NCBI GenBank assembly: GCA_963717465.1
Contig: OY970340.1
Coordinates: 896,001 to 960,000 of the forward strand
Direction of reading: 5' to 3'
From: Candidatus Bathyarchaeota archaeon
Lineage (GTDB): Archaea; Thermoproteota; Bathyarchaeia; Bathyarchaeales; Bathycorpusculaceae
Length of the DNA stretch: 64,000 nucleotides
The notes beneath the pieces are model-generated. The model was not told where the DNA came from. It made no database searches and saw only the letters and a list, made by a program, of their open reading frames with translations. Every line of letters begins with the position of its first letter. Position 1 is the stretch's first letter. Of this stretch, positions 8,564 to 59,818 are shown piece by piece. The translations under genes and the position numbers were made by a program.

Positions 8564-8785
8564 AAACGAATTCACCTCCGTTAATACTTCCAAAAACAAG
8601 TTCCTAATTTATAGAAGCCGAAATACCGCTCATAAACCTATGTGGTTGTTGCATAACAATAACATGCCCTTGCATAACAAAACCAGAGAAAGCCAACAAA
8701 TTGTTAACATTTGTTGTTGTTTACGGTTGTCCTAAGCACTTGAAAATTCGTTTTTTTAGAAAATAATTCTTTAAGAAAGATGAAG

Positions 8786-8882
8786 CGGGCCCGCTGGGAT
8801 TTGAACCCAGGATTTTCGGCTTTCTTCCGCTTAAAGAAGCGTCCGGAGGCCGACGCCTTAATCCGTACTAGACTACGAGCCC
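8786..8882 (-). tRNA. tRNA-Arg(CCG) with 21-nt intron (8822-8842) at position 37/38
   Basis: Acceptor stem GGGCTCG/CGGGCCC, anticodon stem TCGGC/GCCGA, T-loop GGTTCAAATCC; intron ACGCTTCTTTAAGCGGAAGAA forms a bulge-helix-bulge with one mismatch. Confidence 0.92.
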
Positions 8883-53041: not shown

Positions 53042-54717
53042 ATGTCCATCTTGGAAACTAAAGATCTTGTCTATACGTATCCTGGTGGTCAAAAGCCATC
53101 AATCGACGGAGTCTCCATAAAAGTGAAGAAAGGAGAATTCGTTTTGATTACTGGTCCAAGTGGCTGCGGGAAAACGACTTTGTGCCGATGTTTTAACGGT
53201 TTAATTCCTCATTTTTACCAAGGCGAATTACACGGCGAAATCCAAGTAACAGGATTAAACATTACTGAACACCCTACTCAAGAATTAGCACGGCATGTTG
53301 GCTTGGTTTTTCAAAATCCAGAAAATCAACTATTCGCTTTATCCGTCGAAAAAGACGTCGCGTTTGGCATGGAAAATCTCGGCGTACCCCGAAACGAAAT
53401 GCGCGAAAGAGTTGATTGGGCATTAAACATGACTGGAATCGCTAATTTACGCGAAAGATCGCCGCATGAGGTTTCTGGGGGTCAACAGCAACGTGTTGCA
53501 ATAGCATCGGTTCTTGCCATGAAACCGGAAATAATCGTTTTAGATGAACCCACATCTTTTCTTGACCCATTAAGCGCTGAAAAAATCTTTGAAGTTATCG
53601 CTGAACTTAACAAAAAGCAAGGCATAACAGTCATTCTAGTTGAGCATAGACTAGATTTAACGGCAAAGTACACTGACCATCTGATAGTGATGAATGAGGG
53701 AAAGGTTTGCTCTAGATGGAAATCCCCGAGAAATCCTTAATTCAGAGGAAACACGCCTAATCGGCGTCGGAATACCTAAAGCAACTCTCCTCTATCAAAT
53801 GCTAAAGAAAGACGGGTTAGAACTAGGAAAAACAATCCCGTTATCTTCTGAAGAATTGGCCGACCAACTGAGGGAGGCTTTGAGAGCATTGATTGAGGTT
53901 GAAGACATCCATTTTTCTTACCCTAGTCAAGTCGAGGCGCTAAAAGGCGTTTCATTGACTATAAATGATGGTGAATTTGTTGCCATCATGGGACAAAACG
54001 GTGCTGGAAAAACAACACTCGTTAAACACTTTAATGGTTTACTCAAGCCTTCACAAGGAAGCATCCGCGTTGACGGCGTTGAAACAAAAAAATCAAGCTG
54101 TTGCAGCGTTGTCTAGAAATATCGGTTTTGTTTTTCAGAATCCAGATCATCAGTTGTTCAGCGAAACCGTCGAAGAAGAAATAGGGTTCGCACTCAAGAA
54201 TTTTGGTTTTGAGCCAGAAACCATTGAAAAACAGATAACTTGGGCTCTAAACCTATTATCGTTAACGCAGTACAGGAAGACTTCACCGTTTATGCTCAGC
54301 GGGGGCGAACGCAAACGCGTTGCACTAGCCTCAGTGTTAGCTTGGGATCCTAAAACGTTGATTTTGGATGAGCCAACCATAGGCCAGGATCATGAACAAA
54401 AAGAAAAATTAAGGCAATTTATCATTCAAATGCAAACTCAGAAAAAAACAGTTGTTATAGTTACTCATGATGTGGAATTTGTTGCCGAATGCAACCCCCG
54501 TGTAATTTTCATGAAAGAAGGAAAAATCATCGGAGACGGCATTGGAAAAGAAATGCTTACAAATCAAGAACTACTTTCGCAATCATACATTGTTTTACCG
54601 CAAATAGCCCAAGTATTCAAAGATTTATCATCTTTAGGACTTCCAAGTGATATTATCGATATTTACGAAGCCAAAGATGTAATTTTGAAGGCTCAGGAGA
54701 GAAGAAGACAAAAATGA
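53042..54717 (+). CDS. ecfA: ECF transporter ATPase(s) EcfA/A' (apparently tandem, two frameshifts)
   Basis: Two Walker A motifs (GPSGCGKT, GQNGAGKT), FQNP, SGG, LDEPT. Confidence 0.85.
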
Positions 54718-55662: not shown

Positions 55663-56682
55663 ATGAACTATAGACTTACAAAAGCTGTACCGGTACATGG
55701 ATGAAGCTGCAAGCTCCCACAGTACCAGCTGGATAAACTTCTCGTCAAAGCCGGCGTGTCAATAAAACTTGGCGGCGAGTTGTTAGCTGGACCTTGGGAG
55801 AACTCAAGCGTCATGAAAATTGCAGAAGACCTTGCTTTACTGAACACTCTGGATTTTTTCACTCCGATAGTCGACGAACCCGAGGTACAGGGCAGAATCG
55901 CAGCAAACAATGTTACCAGCGACATTTACGCGATGGGCGTATCGAAAATAGTAAACGTTTTGTCAATTATGGGCTTTCCAGAGGAAATGCCAAACAAGTT
56001 AGCTGTAGGAATGCTGAAAGGATTCGCCGATTTTTGCCGAGAAATTGGTGCGCCTCTTGTTGGTGGGCACACAATTCGAAATCCATGGCCTATTTTGGGC
56101 GGTGCGGCGACCGGTGTTGCCAGCCCAAATAAAATTGTTTATACACGAGGTGCAAAACCTGACGATTTGTTGGTTTTAACTAAACCTTTGGGAATTCAGC
56201 CTGCTATGGCGGCTTATCGAATGTGGAAAGAGAAAACAGGCAGGGAATTGCTAAGTGATATCCCGAAAAAAGTGGTTAAAGATGCAATCTCTGGGGCGAT
56301 TGAAGTAATGACATCTTCGAATAAACCTGTAGCGGAGGCAATGCAGCAGGTTCCAGTCCATGCTGCTACTGACATTACGGGTTTTGGTTTGAAGGGTCAC
56401 GCTGAAAACATGGCAAAACTTGGTCAAGTAAATATTGTATTCGATGAATTAGCAGTTATCCGTGGTACGCCTGCTTTGGCTGAGGTGCAGGGTTATCCTT
56501 TGCTTAAGGGTGATGCAAGCGAGACTGCAGGAGGCATGCTTATAGCTGTAGGCAAAGGGGATTTAGATGATTTGCTTAAAGAGTTAGAAAAACGTAAGGT
56601 TAGACACTTTGAAGTTGGCCGTGTAATGAAGGGTCAAGGTACAGTGAAAATAGGTAAGCAAGTGAAAATTTTAGAAGTTTAA
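55663..56682 (+). CDS. selD: Selenophosphate synthetase, selenoprotein (UGA-Sec at codon 14, 55702-55704)
   Basis: SD GAGGTGA plus ATG at 55663, in frame: MNYRLTKAVPVHG[TGA]SCKLP; DFFTPIVD, SDIYAMG, GGHT, TKPLG, TDITGFGL.GH. Confidence 0.93.
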
Positions 56683-56741: not shown

Positions 56742-58940
56742 GTGCCAGTTTCTCGCTGCCCATATCTACTTATAATGTGCGGGTTGCCTGCTTCAGGCAA
56801 AACAACCATATGCAGAAAGGTGGCTGCGATTCTCGAGGACAAACATGGCTTACCAACTATGATAATCAGCTCTGACGATTTCAGGCGTATGGTTACGTAT
56901 TCTAGTTCGGGATTTCAGCCTGAAAAAGAGGCGGCTATTAAGCTTCTTTTTGAAAGAGCAATAAGTACTGCCTTGGAAAATTCTTTTTTAGTAATTTGCG
57001 ATGACATGAACTATTATAAGTCGATGAGGGCAGACTTAGGCAAAATCGCTAAAAACTCAAATTCAGATTACGACATTGTCTTTGTCAATACTCCTGTTGA
57101 CTTAGCGTTAAAATGGAATCAGGAGCGGGGCTTTACAGTCCCTAATTCGCTTATTGAGGAAATTAACCAAAAACTAGACGCGCCCAAAGGCGATTATAAA
57201 TGGGATACTGCAATGGCCACCGTTGATCCGAGCAAACAGAGTTTAGATGAAATGGCAAACGTAATCGTCGGCGGCATTATTAAAAGATTGGAGAATCCAG
57301 TCAGAAGTAAACCCAAAAAGATTGTCGAGGACGAAAAATCATTAAGAGCACGGGGTATCGAGAGAGAAACTCGGAAATCAATGATGGAAGTTATGACGCG
57401 GTTCAAAAATCCAGATTTGGCTATTTCCCTCTCAAAGATCCGCAAGGAAGTAGTTAAGAAAGCCTTGCTGGAAGGGGTTCAACCCACAGTTGCTGTGGAA
57501 ATGTTCCTAAGAGGTGCTGATGAAGTCACCAAAGGTTTCGCCATGCCCGAGACGAAAGGGTTGATTTCAGTCCATGTAGGCTTATTTGGTCACGTGGATC
57601 ACGGCAAAACCATGCTTGCTAGACGATTAACAGAGAAGCCTTCAACTGCAGCGTTGGATAAAGCTCCTGATTCAGCGCGGCGTGGTATGACCTTGGATAT
57701 GGGTTTCTCAGCTTTCTGGCTTGACAATTACATGGTGACACTTGTTGACCTGCCGGGGCATTTTAGCTTAATTAGGCATGCAGCTGCGGGAGCCAACATT
57801 ATCGATTCTGCAATACTTGTTGTCGCGGCGGATCTTGGCTTGCAGATTCAAAGTGTCGAGCATTTTTCAATAATTAAAAACTTGGGCATAAAGGATCTTG
57901 TCGTGGCTTTAAACAAGATTGATGCGGCTTCTCCTGACAGAATCGAGGAAGTAAAAAAGAAAATCGCGCTTATGCTGAAAGGAACACGATACGAGAACGC
58001 CAAGATAGTTGGAGTTTCAGGCTTAACAGGCGCTGGCATGGAGGAATTAAAGAATGAAATCAAGATGTCACTTAAGCCTCCCGTTAGGCAATGGGTTGGG
58101 CCTTTTAAGATGCCCATTGATCACGCATTCATAATCGCTGGAGTCGGCACCGTTTTAACTGGAACAATTCATCGTGGAAAAGTAAAACTGAAGGATACTG
58201 TTGAGATCAAGCCGATCGATAAGACTGGGCAAGTCAGGTCTTTGAGGTCTTTTGGTGAAGAAAAGGAAGAAGCAATCGCTGGTGACCGCGTTGGAATGGC
58301 TGTTAAGGATATTAAACCTGATGATGCTCACAGAGGTTTCATCGCTTGCACCCCAGGGTCAATTAAGTCTACCCAGCGTATGCTTGTAGAATTTGAAATG
58401 GACAAGTATTACAAGCGTTCGATGGAGCCCAAAAGTGGAGTAACAGCATTCGTTGGGTCCTATGAAGTGTTAGCAACTGCTACACCTGGAACACTTGAAA
58501 ACTCAAAATTCGTTGTTAAACCTTCAATCAGAGACGGAGAAAAATGCACAATTTATCTGGAACTTAAGGAGCCAGTGGTAGCGGAAAGCGGTGACCGTGT
58601 TCTACTGTTAAATACCGGGCTTCAAGCACGTGAATTCCGAATAATCGGCGGAGGAAGAATCATCGAAACAGAGAAAATACCTGAATTCTTCTCAAGAAAA
58701 GTCAAATCAGGAACCGTGAAGGAAAAGCAAACAGACAACAACTACATCATAAGCGGTTTAGCCAATGCTGAAGGCGCAGCTGTAAAGTATACGAAGAAGC
58801 AGATCACGACTGCAGCTGGCGTAAAAGGGGAAATTATCTCTCCTTCAAAATCAAGTGGAGATGTCGTTGCCACGTTTATCCAGCCGGTTCAGGTAGGCGA
58901 AAAAGTGTTTCTCGTTAAATATAAGAAACTGCAGGTTTGA
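56742..58940 (+). CDS. pstK-selB: Fused O-phosphoseryl-tRNA(Sec) kinase (PSTK) and Sec-specific elongation factor SelB
   Basis: N-terminal GLPASGKT, DDMNYYKSMR, YKWD, ERETRK; from ~aa 268 GHVDHGKT, RGMTLDMGFSAF, DLPGH, NKID, IDHAF, AGDRVG. Confidence 0.88.
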   Translation: MPVSRCPYLLIMCGLPASGKTTICRKVAAILEDKHGLPTMIISSDDFRRMVTYSSSGFQPEKEAAIKLLFERAISTALENSFLVICDDMNYYKSMRADLGKIAKNSNSDYDIVFVNTPVDLALKWNQERGFTVPNSLIEEINQKLDAPKGDYKWDTAMATVDPSKQSLDEMANVIVGGIIKRLENPVRSKPKKIVEDEKSLRARGIERETRKSMMEVMTRFKNPDLAISLSKIRKEVVKKALLEGVQPTVAVEMFLRGADEVTKGFAMPETKGLISVHVGLFGHVDHGKTMLARRLTEKPSTAALDKAPDSARRGMTLDMGFSAFWLDNYMVTLVDLPGHFSLIRHAAAGANIIDSAILVVAADLGLQIQSVEHFSIIKNLGIKDLVVALNKIDAASPDRIEEVKKKIALMLKGTRYENAKIVGVSGLTGAGMEELKNEIKMSLKPPVRQWVGPFKMPIDHAFIIAGVGTVLTGTIHRGKVKLKDTVEIKPIDKTGQVRSLRSFGEEKEEAIAGDRVGMAVKDIKPDDAHRGFIACTPGSIKSTQRMLVEFEMDKYYKRSMEPKSGVTAFVGSYEVLATATPGTLENSKFVVKPSIRDGEKCTIYLELKEPVVAESGDRVLLLNTGLQAREFRIIGGGRIIETEKIPEFFSRKVKSGTVKEKQTDNNYIISGLANAEGAAVKYTKKQITTAAGVKGEIISPSKSSGDVVATFIQPVQVGEKVFLVKYKKLQV

Positions 58941-59818
58941 GCGTTAAAGACTTGACTGAACGTACACGTTTTGGTCCAGCCGGTGTTCCTCCACCTTTTC
59001 GGATTCTTAGAGCCAAGTTATCGGATGTTCCTGGGCTTCTGCGGGAAGAGGGTCTTGATGCGTTTGAGTATCAAGCTTCACGTTGGGGTGCGACACCGCA
59101 AATCAAACAAGAGGATGCTGAGAAATTGGGCCTTGAAGCAAAGAAAAACGATGTCAAGCTCAGCGTTCATGGGTCCTACTTCATTAACCTATCTGGAAAA
59201 GATGATATCGTTGAAGCAAGCAAGCAACGTTTGATTGCTGGTGCAACCGCGGCGCAGTGGATGGGAGCATACGTCGTTGTTTTTCACTTGGGTTTTTATG
59301 GCCGATTTGAAAAGAGTTTTGCCTTCAAAAACTGCGTAACCGCTTTGAAAGACGTAAGTCAAACCTTAAAGAGTCTAGGAATCAAGGTGAAGCTCGGTCC
59401 AGAGACGATGGGCAGAAAATTTCAAGTCGGATCACTTGACGAAATATTAACGATTTGCCAAGAAGTTGAAGGCACACAGTTGGTTATTGATTGGGGCCAT
59501 CTCCATGCGAGAAATCAGGGCGCATTCAAAAAAATTGAGGATTTCCGATCAGCCGTTGAAAAAGTTGAGTACCAACTCGGAACAGAAGCGATAAAGAATA
59601 TGCACTGTCACTTCTCTAAAATCGAGTTCTCCAGCCAAGGAGAAAAGAGGCATCGAACATTGGAGGAAAAAAGGTATGGCCCAGACTTTGCGTTGCTTGC
59701 TCAAGTGATTGCGGATTTTAATTTGTATCCGACTTTGATTTGTGAAACGCCTCTTTTGGATATTGACGCAGTTAAAATGCGAGAAATTTATGATGGCGTA
59801 CTGAAAGGAAAAATGTAA
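58937..59818 (+). CDS. nfo: Endonuclease IV-family AP endonuclease
   Basis: RFGPAG, HGSYFINL, ETMGR..QVG, DWGHLHAR, HCHFS, ICETP. Confidence 0.9.
   Translation: MSVKDLTERTRFGPAGVPPPFRILRAKLSDVPGLLREEGLDAFEYQASRWGATPQIKQEDAEKLGLEAKKNDVKLSVHGSYFINLSGKDDIVEASKQRLIAGATAAQWMGAYVVVFHLGFYGRFEKSFAFKNCVTALKDVSQTLKSLGIKVKLGPETMGRKFQVGSLDEILTICQEVEGTQLVIDWGHLHARNQGAFKKIEDFRSAVEKVEYQLGTEAIKNMHCHFSKIEFSSQGEKRHRTLEEKRYGPDFALLAQVIADFNLYPTLICETPLLDIDAVKMREIYDGVLKGKM

Follow-up and report, generated by a model that had tools for sequence, protein, structure and literature searches.

PSTK-SelB fusion of the Bathyarchaeota type in a genome without SepRS and SepCysS, accompanied by a divergent second copy

The joining of PSTK and archaeal SelB (aSelB) in one open reading frame (ORF) is known from diverse Bathyarchaeota and one Archaeoglobus, as reported by Mukai et al. 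(Front Genet 2022, PMC8762117), and is reviewed by Meng et al. (2022, PMC9499178). The review's citation for it, Mukai et al. 2017 (mBio, PMC5424206), names neither PSTK nor SelB in its main text. In PMC8762117, the Bathyarchaeota-type fusion carries an N-terminal PSTK and a C-terminal aSelB in one ORF, which is also the arrangement found here. Sifarchaeia, as described there, have PSTK directly before aSelB in the same order, but as separate ORFs split by a stop codon.

Here, one such fused gene was analysed within a window of 64,000 nucleotides from a Candidatus Bathyarchaeota archaeon genome (Table 1). It is a confirmed example of the known Bathyarchaeota-type fusion rather than a discovery, because a 2022 paper already reported the fusion from this group of archaea. 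The sequence-only reading of this DNA had stated that it knew of no described example; this does not hold, as the fusion is in print in both 2022 papers. Its central claim, a single uninterrupted PSTK-SelB frame, is confirmed by the ORF listing, which has no in-frame stop across the 732 aa, and by the DNA, Pfam, NCBIfam and structure alignments. Every motif it quoted is found in the translation, and its domain boundaries are correct. Pfam places KTI12/PSTK at residues 9-219 (E 1.1e-34), GTP_EFTU at 277-441 (E 2.3e-31), GTP_EFTU_D2 at 469-536 and aSelB_III at 546-642, and these domain matches are far beyond chance. Judged by sequence, each module is present in full, with its catalytic motifs preserved.

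Table 1. Coordinates of the fused gene, its modules, the upstream selD and the second fused copy; positions are those of the window unless a contig is given.
Feature	Position	Strand	Details
Fused pstK-selB	56742..58940	+	732 codons + stop, GTG start; ORF list and DNA
PSTK module, residues 1-263	56742..57530	+	KTI12 9-219, TIGR03574 9-241, 3adb alignment
Junction, residues 264-274	57531..57563	+	short non-regular linker of near-constant length; contains Met268
Archaeal SelB module, residues 275-732	57564..58937	+	GTP_EFTU, D2, aSelB_III, TIGR00475, 4ac9
selD (selenophosphate synthetase)	55663..56682	+	directly upstream of the fused gene, 59-nt gap; itself a selenoprotein gene
TGA codon within the selD frame, taken as selenocysteine	55702..55704	+	TGA=U reading and profile score
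Second PSTK-SelB copy, P0078	G000:C1:2827369-2829549	-	730 aa; far outside the window, at 2.83 Mb

In the N-terminal module, residues 8-241 align to residues 12-237 of the 259 of Methanocaldococcus jannaschii (Mj) PSTK (3adb, E 1e-27), so that both the kinase and the C-terminal domain are alignable. The motifs GLPASGKT (14-21), DDMNYYKSMR (87-96), YKWD (152-155) and ERETRK (207-212) are all present. In an AF2 model of the fused protein (mean pLDDT 86.9, pTM 0.66), the C-terminal domain of the module consists of three helices (198-221, 224-244 and 248-263); in PSTK, this helical domain binds the D-arm of the tRNA. Definitions of the P-loop, Walker B and RNxxR motifs were taken from PMC2275090 and mapped onto the fused protein via the 3adb alignment. 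The P-loop pattern GxP(G/A)xGK(S/T) is matched by G14-L-P-A-S-G-K-T21, which aligns to the 3adb P-loop. The essential Mj residues given there (G14, K17, S18, D41 and R120; PMC2275090) correspond to A17, K20, T21, D45 and R129, while G14 of the fused protein aligns with Mj G11, where the P-loop motif begins. A 64-row alignment shows no variation at G19, K20 and R129, and conservation of Asp45, the Walker B counterpart of Mj D41, is at least 90% among the fused proteins.

With M. jannaschii PSTK (3adb/3a4l), the fused protein shares the P-loop, the Walker B Asp and the distal RNxxR Arg. However, the proximal Arg (Mj R116) is replaced by Trp, as the motif position reads W125-N-Q-E-R129, and W125 is invariant throughout the fused family. 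The R116A exchange impaired the M. jannaschii enzyme only partially (PMC2275090). The two proteins also differ in context: the M. jannaschii enzyme is a separate protein of about 250 aa, whereas in the fused protein the last PSTK helix is followed, after 11 residues, by SelB. With Pfam KTI12 (PF08433) the score is 120.7 bits (cut-off 22), while NCBIfam selen_PSTK (TIGR03574) gives 148.2 bits and so falls short of its equivalog cut-off, 290.5. That model is evidently built on stand-alone enzymes, and the second fused copy likewise falls below its cut-off.

The C-terminal module belongs to archaeal SelB (TIGR00475, PF21440) and scores 270.9 bits with the NCBIfam selB model (TIGR00475), above the cut-off of 242.25. 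Its motifs comprise GHVDHGKT (283-290), RGMTLDMGFSAF (314-325), IDHAF (459-463) and AGDRVG (513-518). Within the G domain, G1 (GHVDHGKT, 283-290), switch I (RGMTLD, 314-319), G3 (DLPGH, 336-340) and G4 (NKID, 391-394) are intact and are invariant or nearly so in the fused family. The closest structural counterpart is the archaeal SelB of PDB 4ac9/4aca/4acb, which we take to be that of Methanococcus maripaludis. Residues 276-727 align to residues 19-478 of the 482 in 4ac9 (E 2.4e-79), and all four domains are matched, with domain II at 469-536, III at 546-642 and IV at about 649-732. As the alignment runs to near the C-terminus, the fused protein ends in the archaeal domain IV and lacks the bacterial winged-helix extension, in agreement with the sequence-only reading. 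In contrast to the stand-alone archaeal SelB, it adds a kinase module of 263 residues at the N-terminus.

The two modules are joined by a short stretch that has no regular secondary structure in the AF2 model, with a block pLDDT of 70-77. Its length is near-constant: of 122 full-length relatives, 111 have 36 aa in the segment aligned to residues 242-277, with a range of 34-37, and sequence comparison shows that the fused family has conserved both its architecture and the length of its junction. When the PSTK and SelB modules were folded as separate chains, a contact score of 0.50 was obtained, compared with 0.00 for the best of three controls; contact agreement between runs was at least 94% and partner pLDDT at least 81. 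Of 157 solved complexes, 116 reach the score mark for contact, as do 2 of 215 mismatched pairs, and scores at the mark but no higher than 0.60 were seen in 18 of the 157 complexes and in both passing mismatches, counts that hold only roughly here as a different, self-built alignment was used as input. The models thus hint that the two modules may contact each other.

This junction also bears on whether the frame yields two proteins, with SelB made additionally, or exclusively, on its own through the ATG at 57543 (Met268) or by cleavage of the linker. The ATG lies seven codons ahead of the first SelB strand, and the lower model confidence at the linker would fit such an arrangement. However, Met occupies column 268 in just 31 of 122 aligned relatives, which speaks against the separate start at 57543 raised earlier, and only 56 of the 122 have any Met at all within the 20 residues that precede the G domain. 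Constant linker length is not expected of a mere spacer between cistrons, and the junction frame is unbroken in all 18 genomes examined, the stops of the two broken copies (G097 and G348) lying inside the SelB part. We therefore regard separate production of SelB as very unlikely.

The fusion is retained well beyond this genome. Both domains are found in 118 of the 120 database relatives, counted among the best matches listed, in many independent assemblies and down to 37-40% identity. The closest named relatives among these matches (P0034, P0038 and P0043) share 69-70% identity and are listed by NCBI under Bathyarchaeota or Bathyarchaeia. Among the best 150 representatives of clusters at 50% identity, 7 are full-length fusions, and in a quick tree the protein falls within a clade (SH-aLRT 100%) formed by 18 fused proteins. 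Surveys were made on samples of each group: 10 of 120 genomes of the genus and 12 of 401 of the class carry the fusion, every SelB found among the 401 is of the fused form, and the frame is uninterrupted in eight other genomes of the genus. Unlike the split ORFs of Sifarchaeia, the fused frame is continuous here and in the relatives examined.

These counts also decide whether a sequencing or assembly indel merged two neighbouring genes. One ECF-transporter ATPase gene of this window has its parts in different frames, with the break close to an A7 run (54083-54091), probably through a homopolymer frameshift; indel errors or real frameshifts thus exist in the window, and single-base errors do occur in the genome. 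However, since the architecture is common to 118 of the 120 listed relatives, the fusion is no assembly artefact, and the caveat entered against it earlier falls away; an artefactual merger is hardly conceivable. Neither a stop before 57543 nor separate genes in all close relatives were found. Contigs of two other public runs, which are fragments from relatives with none spanning the whole gene, carry no insertion or deletion relative to it, and two of them, from run X2, cross 57497-57629 without a gap. Small shares of the gene's sampled words, 0.11 and 0.06, occur in just two DNA runs, each with the label peat metagenome, and no RNA run appears for these words among the public runs listed. 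Contigs from peat metagenome runs, at 85% likeness, are short and leave parts of the gene uncovered.

The rest of the predicted Sec pathway is present in the genome, namely SepSecS (488.9 bits, above cut-off), two tRNASec genes that pass the Rfam cut-off and each have the anticodon UCA, and a Sec-containing SelD. The PSTK family is represented by the two fused genes only, plus one P-loop match of 35 bits, and a whole-genome search with the fused protein returned no other SelB-specific match. The mismatch in the genome's tRNASec is, in our position numbering, presumably of the U6:U67 type. It resembles that of the wetland-lineage tRNASec described in PMC8762117. Within the window, Rfam at gathering score reports two tRNAs and nothing else.

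The selD gene next to the fused gene begins, with TGA read as U, as MNYRLTKAVPVHGUSCK. Its 339-aa read-through product matches NF010705 over positions 6-345 of 345 with 353.8 bits, compared with 324.7 bits when only the sequence following the TGA is scored. No SECIS was identified for selD in its 5' leader, where 151 nt fold no better than shuffles (z 0.03), or in the 67 nt from the UGA, which form a weaker fold than shuffled sequences do (MFE -9.6 kcal/mol, z +1.44). Across the genus, selD lies more than 1.5 kb from the fused gene in all eight intact loci, and in G039 it is adjacent but divergent, so the selD-pstK/selB tandem is not conserved. A crude scan of the window for long frames containing one or two TGA codons gave 10 candidates, two of which were checked with Pfam: one has all its domains after the TGA, which therefore lies upstream of the gene, and the other matches no Pfam family.

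For the fusion as such, PMC8762117 and, in repetition, PMC9499178 propose a function in an Archaeoglobus species, which has the fusion and SepRS-SepCysS but no SepCysE: the fusion would replace SepCysE and shield Sep-tRNASec from SepCysS, so that no Cys is made on tRNASec. As set out in PMC8762117, this function presupposes SepRS-SepCysS, which the genome here lacks. In its single contig of 3.05 Mb, SepRS reaches at most 50.2 bits (cut-off 380.65) and SepCysS at most 44.1 bits (cut-off 365.25), while CysRS is present with 505.8 bits. The two systems do occur together in one genome of the genus, G122, and SepRS was found in 41 of the 401 class genomes, so an ancestor could have had both the fusion and SepRS. 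However, overlap between them is scarce. In the genus sample, the fusion occurs in 10 and SepRS with SepCysS in 8 of 120 genomes, with one in common; in the class sample, the fusion (12 of 401) and SepRS (41 of 401) never coincide, counts that come from related rather than independent genomes and that at class level cover SepRS. Among 18 fusion-bearing genomes examined, with completeness of 84-98%, a single one has SepRS. Because SepCysS is not there, the benefit of the fusion here is not SepCysS protection, and shielding is a very unlikely account of this gene.

A further difference from the published fusion is the second, divergent copy, P0078, of which no mention was found in the accessible portion of Mukai et al. 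2022 (PMC8762117). P0078 has the same architecture as the window protein, with 54% identity and the PSTK motifs kept, but its GTPase centre is rewritten: GHCKHGKT stands for GHVDHGKT and EMPGN for DLPGH, and the switch I Thr is missing. At 113 columns the other 121 fusions show conservation of at least 97%; P0078 departs from the consensus at 22 of these, compared with 7 in the next worst sequence, and its selB score of 199.4 bits lies below the cut-off. The gene is located directly downstream of its own, second tRNASec gene. No ortholog is present among the 120 matches listed. A fragment in the genus sample (G075:C92), identified there by 54% identity to the window protein, was rejected as one, as it shares 53% identity with the window type and 41% with P0078.

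Taken together, the window gene probably encodes a genuine single-chain PSTK-aSelB that serves as the working copy beside a divergent paralog and tethers Sec synthesis to delivery. SerRS would put serine on tRNASec, and the N-terminal kinase would convert Ser-tRNASec to Sep-tRNASec. SepSecS, with selenophosphate from SelD, would then yield Sec-tRNASec, which the SelB module of the same chain would bind with GTP and deliver to UGA codons. The fixed-length tether of about 11 residues would impose a 1:1 dosage of kinase and SelB and may hold scarce tRNASec in one particle from the first committed step through delivery. Such retention would reduce the escape of Ser- and Sep-charged intermediates. 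Channelling by the fused protein is what we infer from its architecture. The sequence-only reading had likewise suggested channelling of tRNASec or protection against misuse of its intermediates, an idea that resembles the published proposal.

A more far-reaching reading is that the Bathyarchaeia fusion is the obligatory form of a distinct mode of Sec decoding rather than a shield against SepCysS, with the RNA-binding domain of the kinase taking on a second job at the ribosome or mRNA. The PSTK helical domain and SelB would then move as one compact particle, and the helical domain could, for example, help SelB, whose archaeal module has no SECIS-binding domain, to use in-gene hairpins after UGA codons. 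Room for this is left by the all-fused SelBs of the class, the retention of the fusion without SepRS-SepCysS, the fixed junction length and the weakly supported module contact. However, no convincing hairpin follows the UGA of the window's selD, and we consider a distinct decoding mode a long shot.

The genome is a useful example of the fusion, as gene absences are believable in a single contig. The GTPase-altered P0078 with its own tRNASec provides a natural contrast for probing what the SelB half contributes. That the fusion is kept here without SepRS-SepCysS makes the sole function so far published for it less convincing and suggests a benefit inherent in Sec synthesis and delivery, which may lie in dosage, tRNASec retention and fidelity.

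PSTK and SelB are encoded together in one uninterrupted frame, which begins with GTG at window 56742..58940 (+) and runs for 732 codons according to the ORF listing and the DNA itself. Pfam places KTI12/PSTK at residues 9-219 (E 1.1e-34), followed by GTP_EFTU (277-441), EF-Tu domain 2 (469-536) and archaeal SelB domain III (546-642). In structure alignments, residues 8-241 match positions 12-237 of the 259 in M. jannaschii PSTK (3adb, E 1e-27), and residues 276-727 match a whole archaeal SelB (4ac9, 19-478 of 482, E 2.4e-79). Among NCBIfam models, selB scores the C-terminal part above its curated cut-off (270.9 vs 242.25 bits), and selen_PSTK scores the N-terminal part below its equivalog cut-off (148.2 vs 290.5 bits). 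These results confirm the single-polypeptide architecture proposed in an earlier sequence-only reading, including a short archaeal C-terminal domain instead of bacterial winged helices, and all eight motifs quoted there occur in the translated frame. A xylose-isomerase-like TIM-barrel (AP_endonuc_2) gene at 58937-59818 (+) has a TTG start that shares bases with the fused gene's stop codon, which suggests that the two are co-transcribed.

The fusion is real. Among the best 120 matches listed from a search of 5.8 billion protein clusters, 118 carry KTI12 and GTP_EFTU together; those relatives that have names at NCBI are Bathyarchaeota or Bathyarchaeia MAGs. These 118 share 40-90% identity and span 683-741 aa, two fragments aside; the two without both domains (413 and 419 aa) come from contigs of 1.5-1.75 kb. 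Full-length fusions make up seven of the 150 best 50%-identity cluster representatives, after which come stand-alone archaeal SelB proteins of ~460-480 aa. Within the genus, the gene occurs in 10 of 120 genomes, as an uninterrupted frame in eight besides the window's own, and in an evenly drawn sample of the class it occurs in 12 of 401. In the other 25 matching genomes of the class sample, the match is to EF-1-alpha-like genes alone, except for G261 with a 400-aa match at 33%, and no stand-alone SelB was seen in these 401 genomes. Judged by the fused gene, the Sec trait is patchy in both genus and class, which implies repeated loss or transfer.

Two relatives have interrupted copies, with one TGA and one TAA inside the SelB part in the genus (G097:C6:3-2149) and one TAA there in the class sample (G348:C14:57121-59303), reflecting either gene decay or faults of assembly. 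Another genome of the same order carries a PSTK-like ORF on its own (G036:C39; locus L021:1370-2140), with 256 aa and 38% identity to residues 9-247; the gene after it on this 2.6-kb contig is unrelated. This genome is 86% complete, and SelB gave no match in it at E<=1e-40.

A separate SelB start at the ATG at window 57543 had also been considered. This codon is Met268 of the fused protein, and its column holds Met in only 31 of 122 aligned full-length fusions (the window copy and 121 of 125 retrieved proteins, four fragments <680 aa being left out), which argues against such a start. In 111 of the 122, the stretch across the junction that corresponds to residues 242-277 has exactly 36 aa, and lengths overall run from 34 to 37. 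Contigs from two other public runs, which are fragments from relatives with none spanning the gene, show zero inserted or deleted letters, and two run gap-free over window 57497-57629. The accompanying worry about indels applies elsewhere in the window, but the fused gene is unaffected: an ECF-type ABC ATPase gene (53694-54717, +) has its second ATP-binding domain split over two overlapping frames, with the frame change near an A7 run (54083-54091), the cause being a sequencing error in the homopolymer or else a genuine frameshift.

The fusion is also already known, because Mukai et al. (PMC8762117, abstract and sections 3.4.1, 3.4.2 and 4) describe PSTK and aSelB in a single ORF from diverse Bathyarchaeota and one Archaeoglobus. 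Meng et al. (PMC9499178, section 23) restate this account; the main text of the 2017 mBio paper they cite for it mentions neither PSTK nor SelB. The sequence-only reading, which knew of no described example, thus stands in part: the fusion is real and its idea of tRNA channelling is plausible, but the fusion is not novel.

The window copy is a canonical, motif-intact PSTK-aSelB of a Bathyarchaeon. According to Sherrer et al. (PMC2275090), the PSTK active site comprises the P-loop GxP(G/A)xGK(S/T), Walker B Asp41 and the motif 116-RNxxR; in M. jannaschii, G14, K17, S18, D41 and R120 are essential in vivo and R116 partly so. In the 3adb alignment, the P-loop of the window copy is G14-T21, with A17, K20 and T21 at the positions of G14, K17 and S18, and D45 at that of D41. 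The RNxxR counterpart is W125-N-Q-E-R129, which retains the distal Arg and replaces the proximal one with a Trp that is invariant across the fused family. The SelB motifs GHVDHGKT, RGMTLD, DLPGH and NKID are unbroken and (nearly) invariant in the family.

An AlphaFold2 model built from 64 aligned sequences has a mean pLDDT of 86.9 and a pTM of 0.66, with low confidence at switch I (302-318). The kinase module closes with three helices (198-221, 224-244 and 248-263), residues 264-274 are irregular and the first SelB strand begins at 275, so the predicted linker is only ~11 residues. Folded as two chains, the modules reached a contact score of 0.50 (best of three controls, 0.00); the runs have 94% or more of their contacts in common, with a partner pLDDT of 81 or higher. 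Of 157 solved complexes, 116 attain the contact mark, as do 2 of 215 mismatches, and passing scores of 0.60 or less come from only 18 of the 157 and both passing mismatches; these counts hold only roughly here because the alignment was author-built. Together, these values point weakly to a possible contact between the modules.

Coordinates of Sec pathway features in the window and its genome
Feature	Position	Strand	Remarks
selD	window 55663-56682	+	directly upstream of fused gene; selenoprotein gene
In-frame TGA of selD (VHGUSCK)	window 55702-55704	+	read as Sec
SepSecS	845802-847067 of genome contig		488.9 bits
tRNASec(UCA)	845693-845779 of genome contig		adjoins SepSecS
P0078, second fused PSTK-SelB gene	2827369-2829549 of G000:C1 (own genome)	minus	730 aa, 54% identity to window copy
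Second tRNASec(UCA)	2829638-2829725 of G000:C1		P0078 directly downstream
P0078 locus	2827369-2829725 of G000:C1 (locus L032:10363-12725)		neighbours include HdrB/C-like, corrinoid-protein, RACo and GcvH genes

The second copy, P0078, lies outside the window, which covers bases 896001-960000 of one 3,053,889-base contig. It retains the kinase motifs, whereas its GTPase centre is rewritten, with GHCKHGKT, a switch I that lacks the Thr, EMPGN replacing DLPGH and SKID replacing NKID. Of 113 columns in which the other 121 fusions are at least 97% conserved, it deviates at 22 (13 of them within residues 286-353), and the next worst fusion at seven. Its NCBIfam selB score is under the cut-off. In a quick tree, both copies fall in the same 18-row clade (100% SH-aLRT), with an end branch of 0.70 for P0078 vs a path of ~0.38 for the window copy. 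No P0078 ortholog was seen among the best 120 listed matches.

Other Sec pathway genes are present. With its TGA read as Sec, selD gives 339 aa from the ATG, covering positions 6-345 of 345 in NF010705 (353.8 bits). In folding stability, its 5' leader and the 67 nt starting at the UGA show no advantage over shuffled sequence, and no hairpin is evident six bases past this codon. The PSTK family model finds only the two fused genes and one 35-bit P-loop match in the genome. The window also holds a tRNA-Trp(CCA) at 8785-8882 (-) whose anticodon loop carries a 21-nt intron, reported as 'tRNA-???' in a first ARAGORN pass. The eighth acceptor pair of tRNASec is a U:U mismatch, which we take to be U6:U67 in the usual tRNASec numbering. 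Mukai et al. (PMC8762117) report a mismatch of this type in a wetland lineage of Bathyarchaeota.

The same authors propose that the fusion may guard Sep-tRNASec against SepCysS where SepCysE is absent (PMC8762117), a suggestion that Meng et al. (PMC9499178) also carry. This published role does not fit the present genome, in which the best matches to SepRS and SepCysS reach 50.2 and 44.1 bits (cut-offs 380.65 and 365.25) and CysRS scores 505.8 bits. Besides this intact cysS, another CysRS-like stretch scores 311 bits and contains one TAA (G000:C1:3049309-3050547, +). In the genus, SepRS with SepCysS occurs in 8 of 120 genomes and overlaps with the fusion in one alone (G122); in the class sample, SepRS occurs in 41 of 401 genomes, with no overlap. 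Across both, one of 18 fusion-bearing genomes (84-98% complete) has SepRS; these are descriptive counts from genomes that are related to one another and are samples of their groups. The fusion is thus retained without the enzyme that it was proposed to guard against. Its benefit may instead lie inside the Sec pathway, where the best reading is that it would fix the dosage of PSTK and SelB at 1:1 and could retain scarce tRNASec from phosphorylation through delivery.
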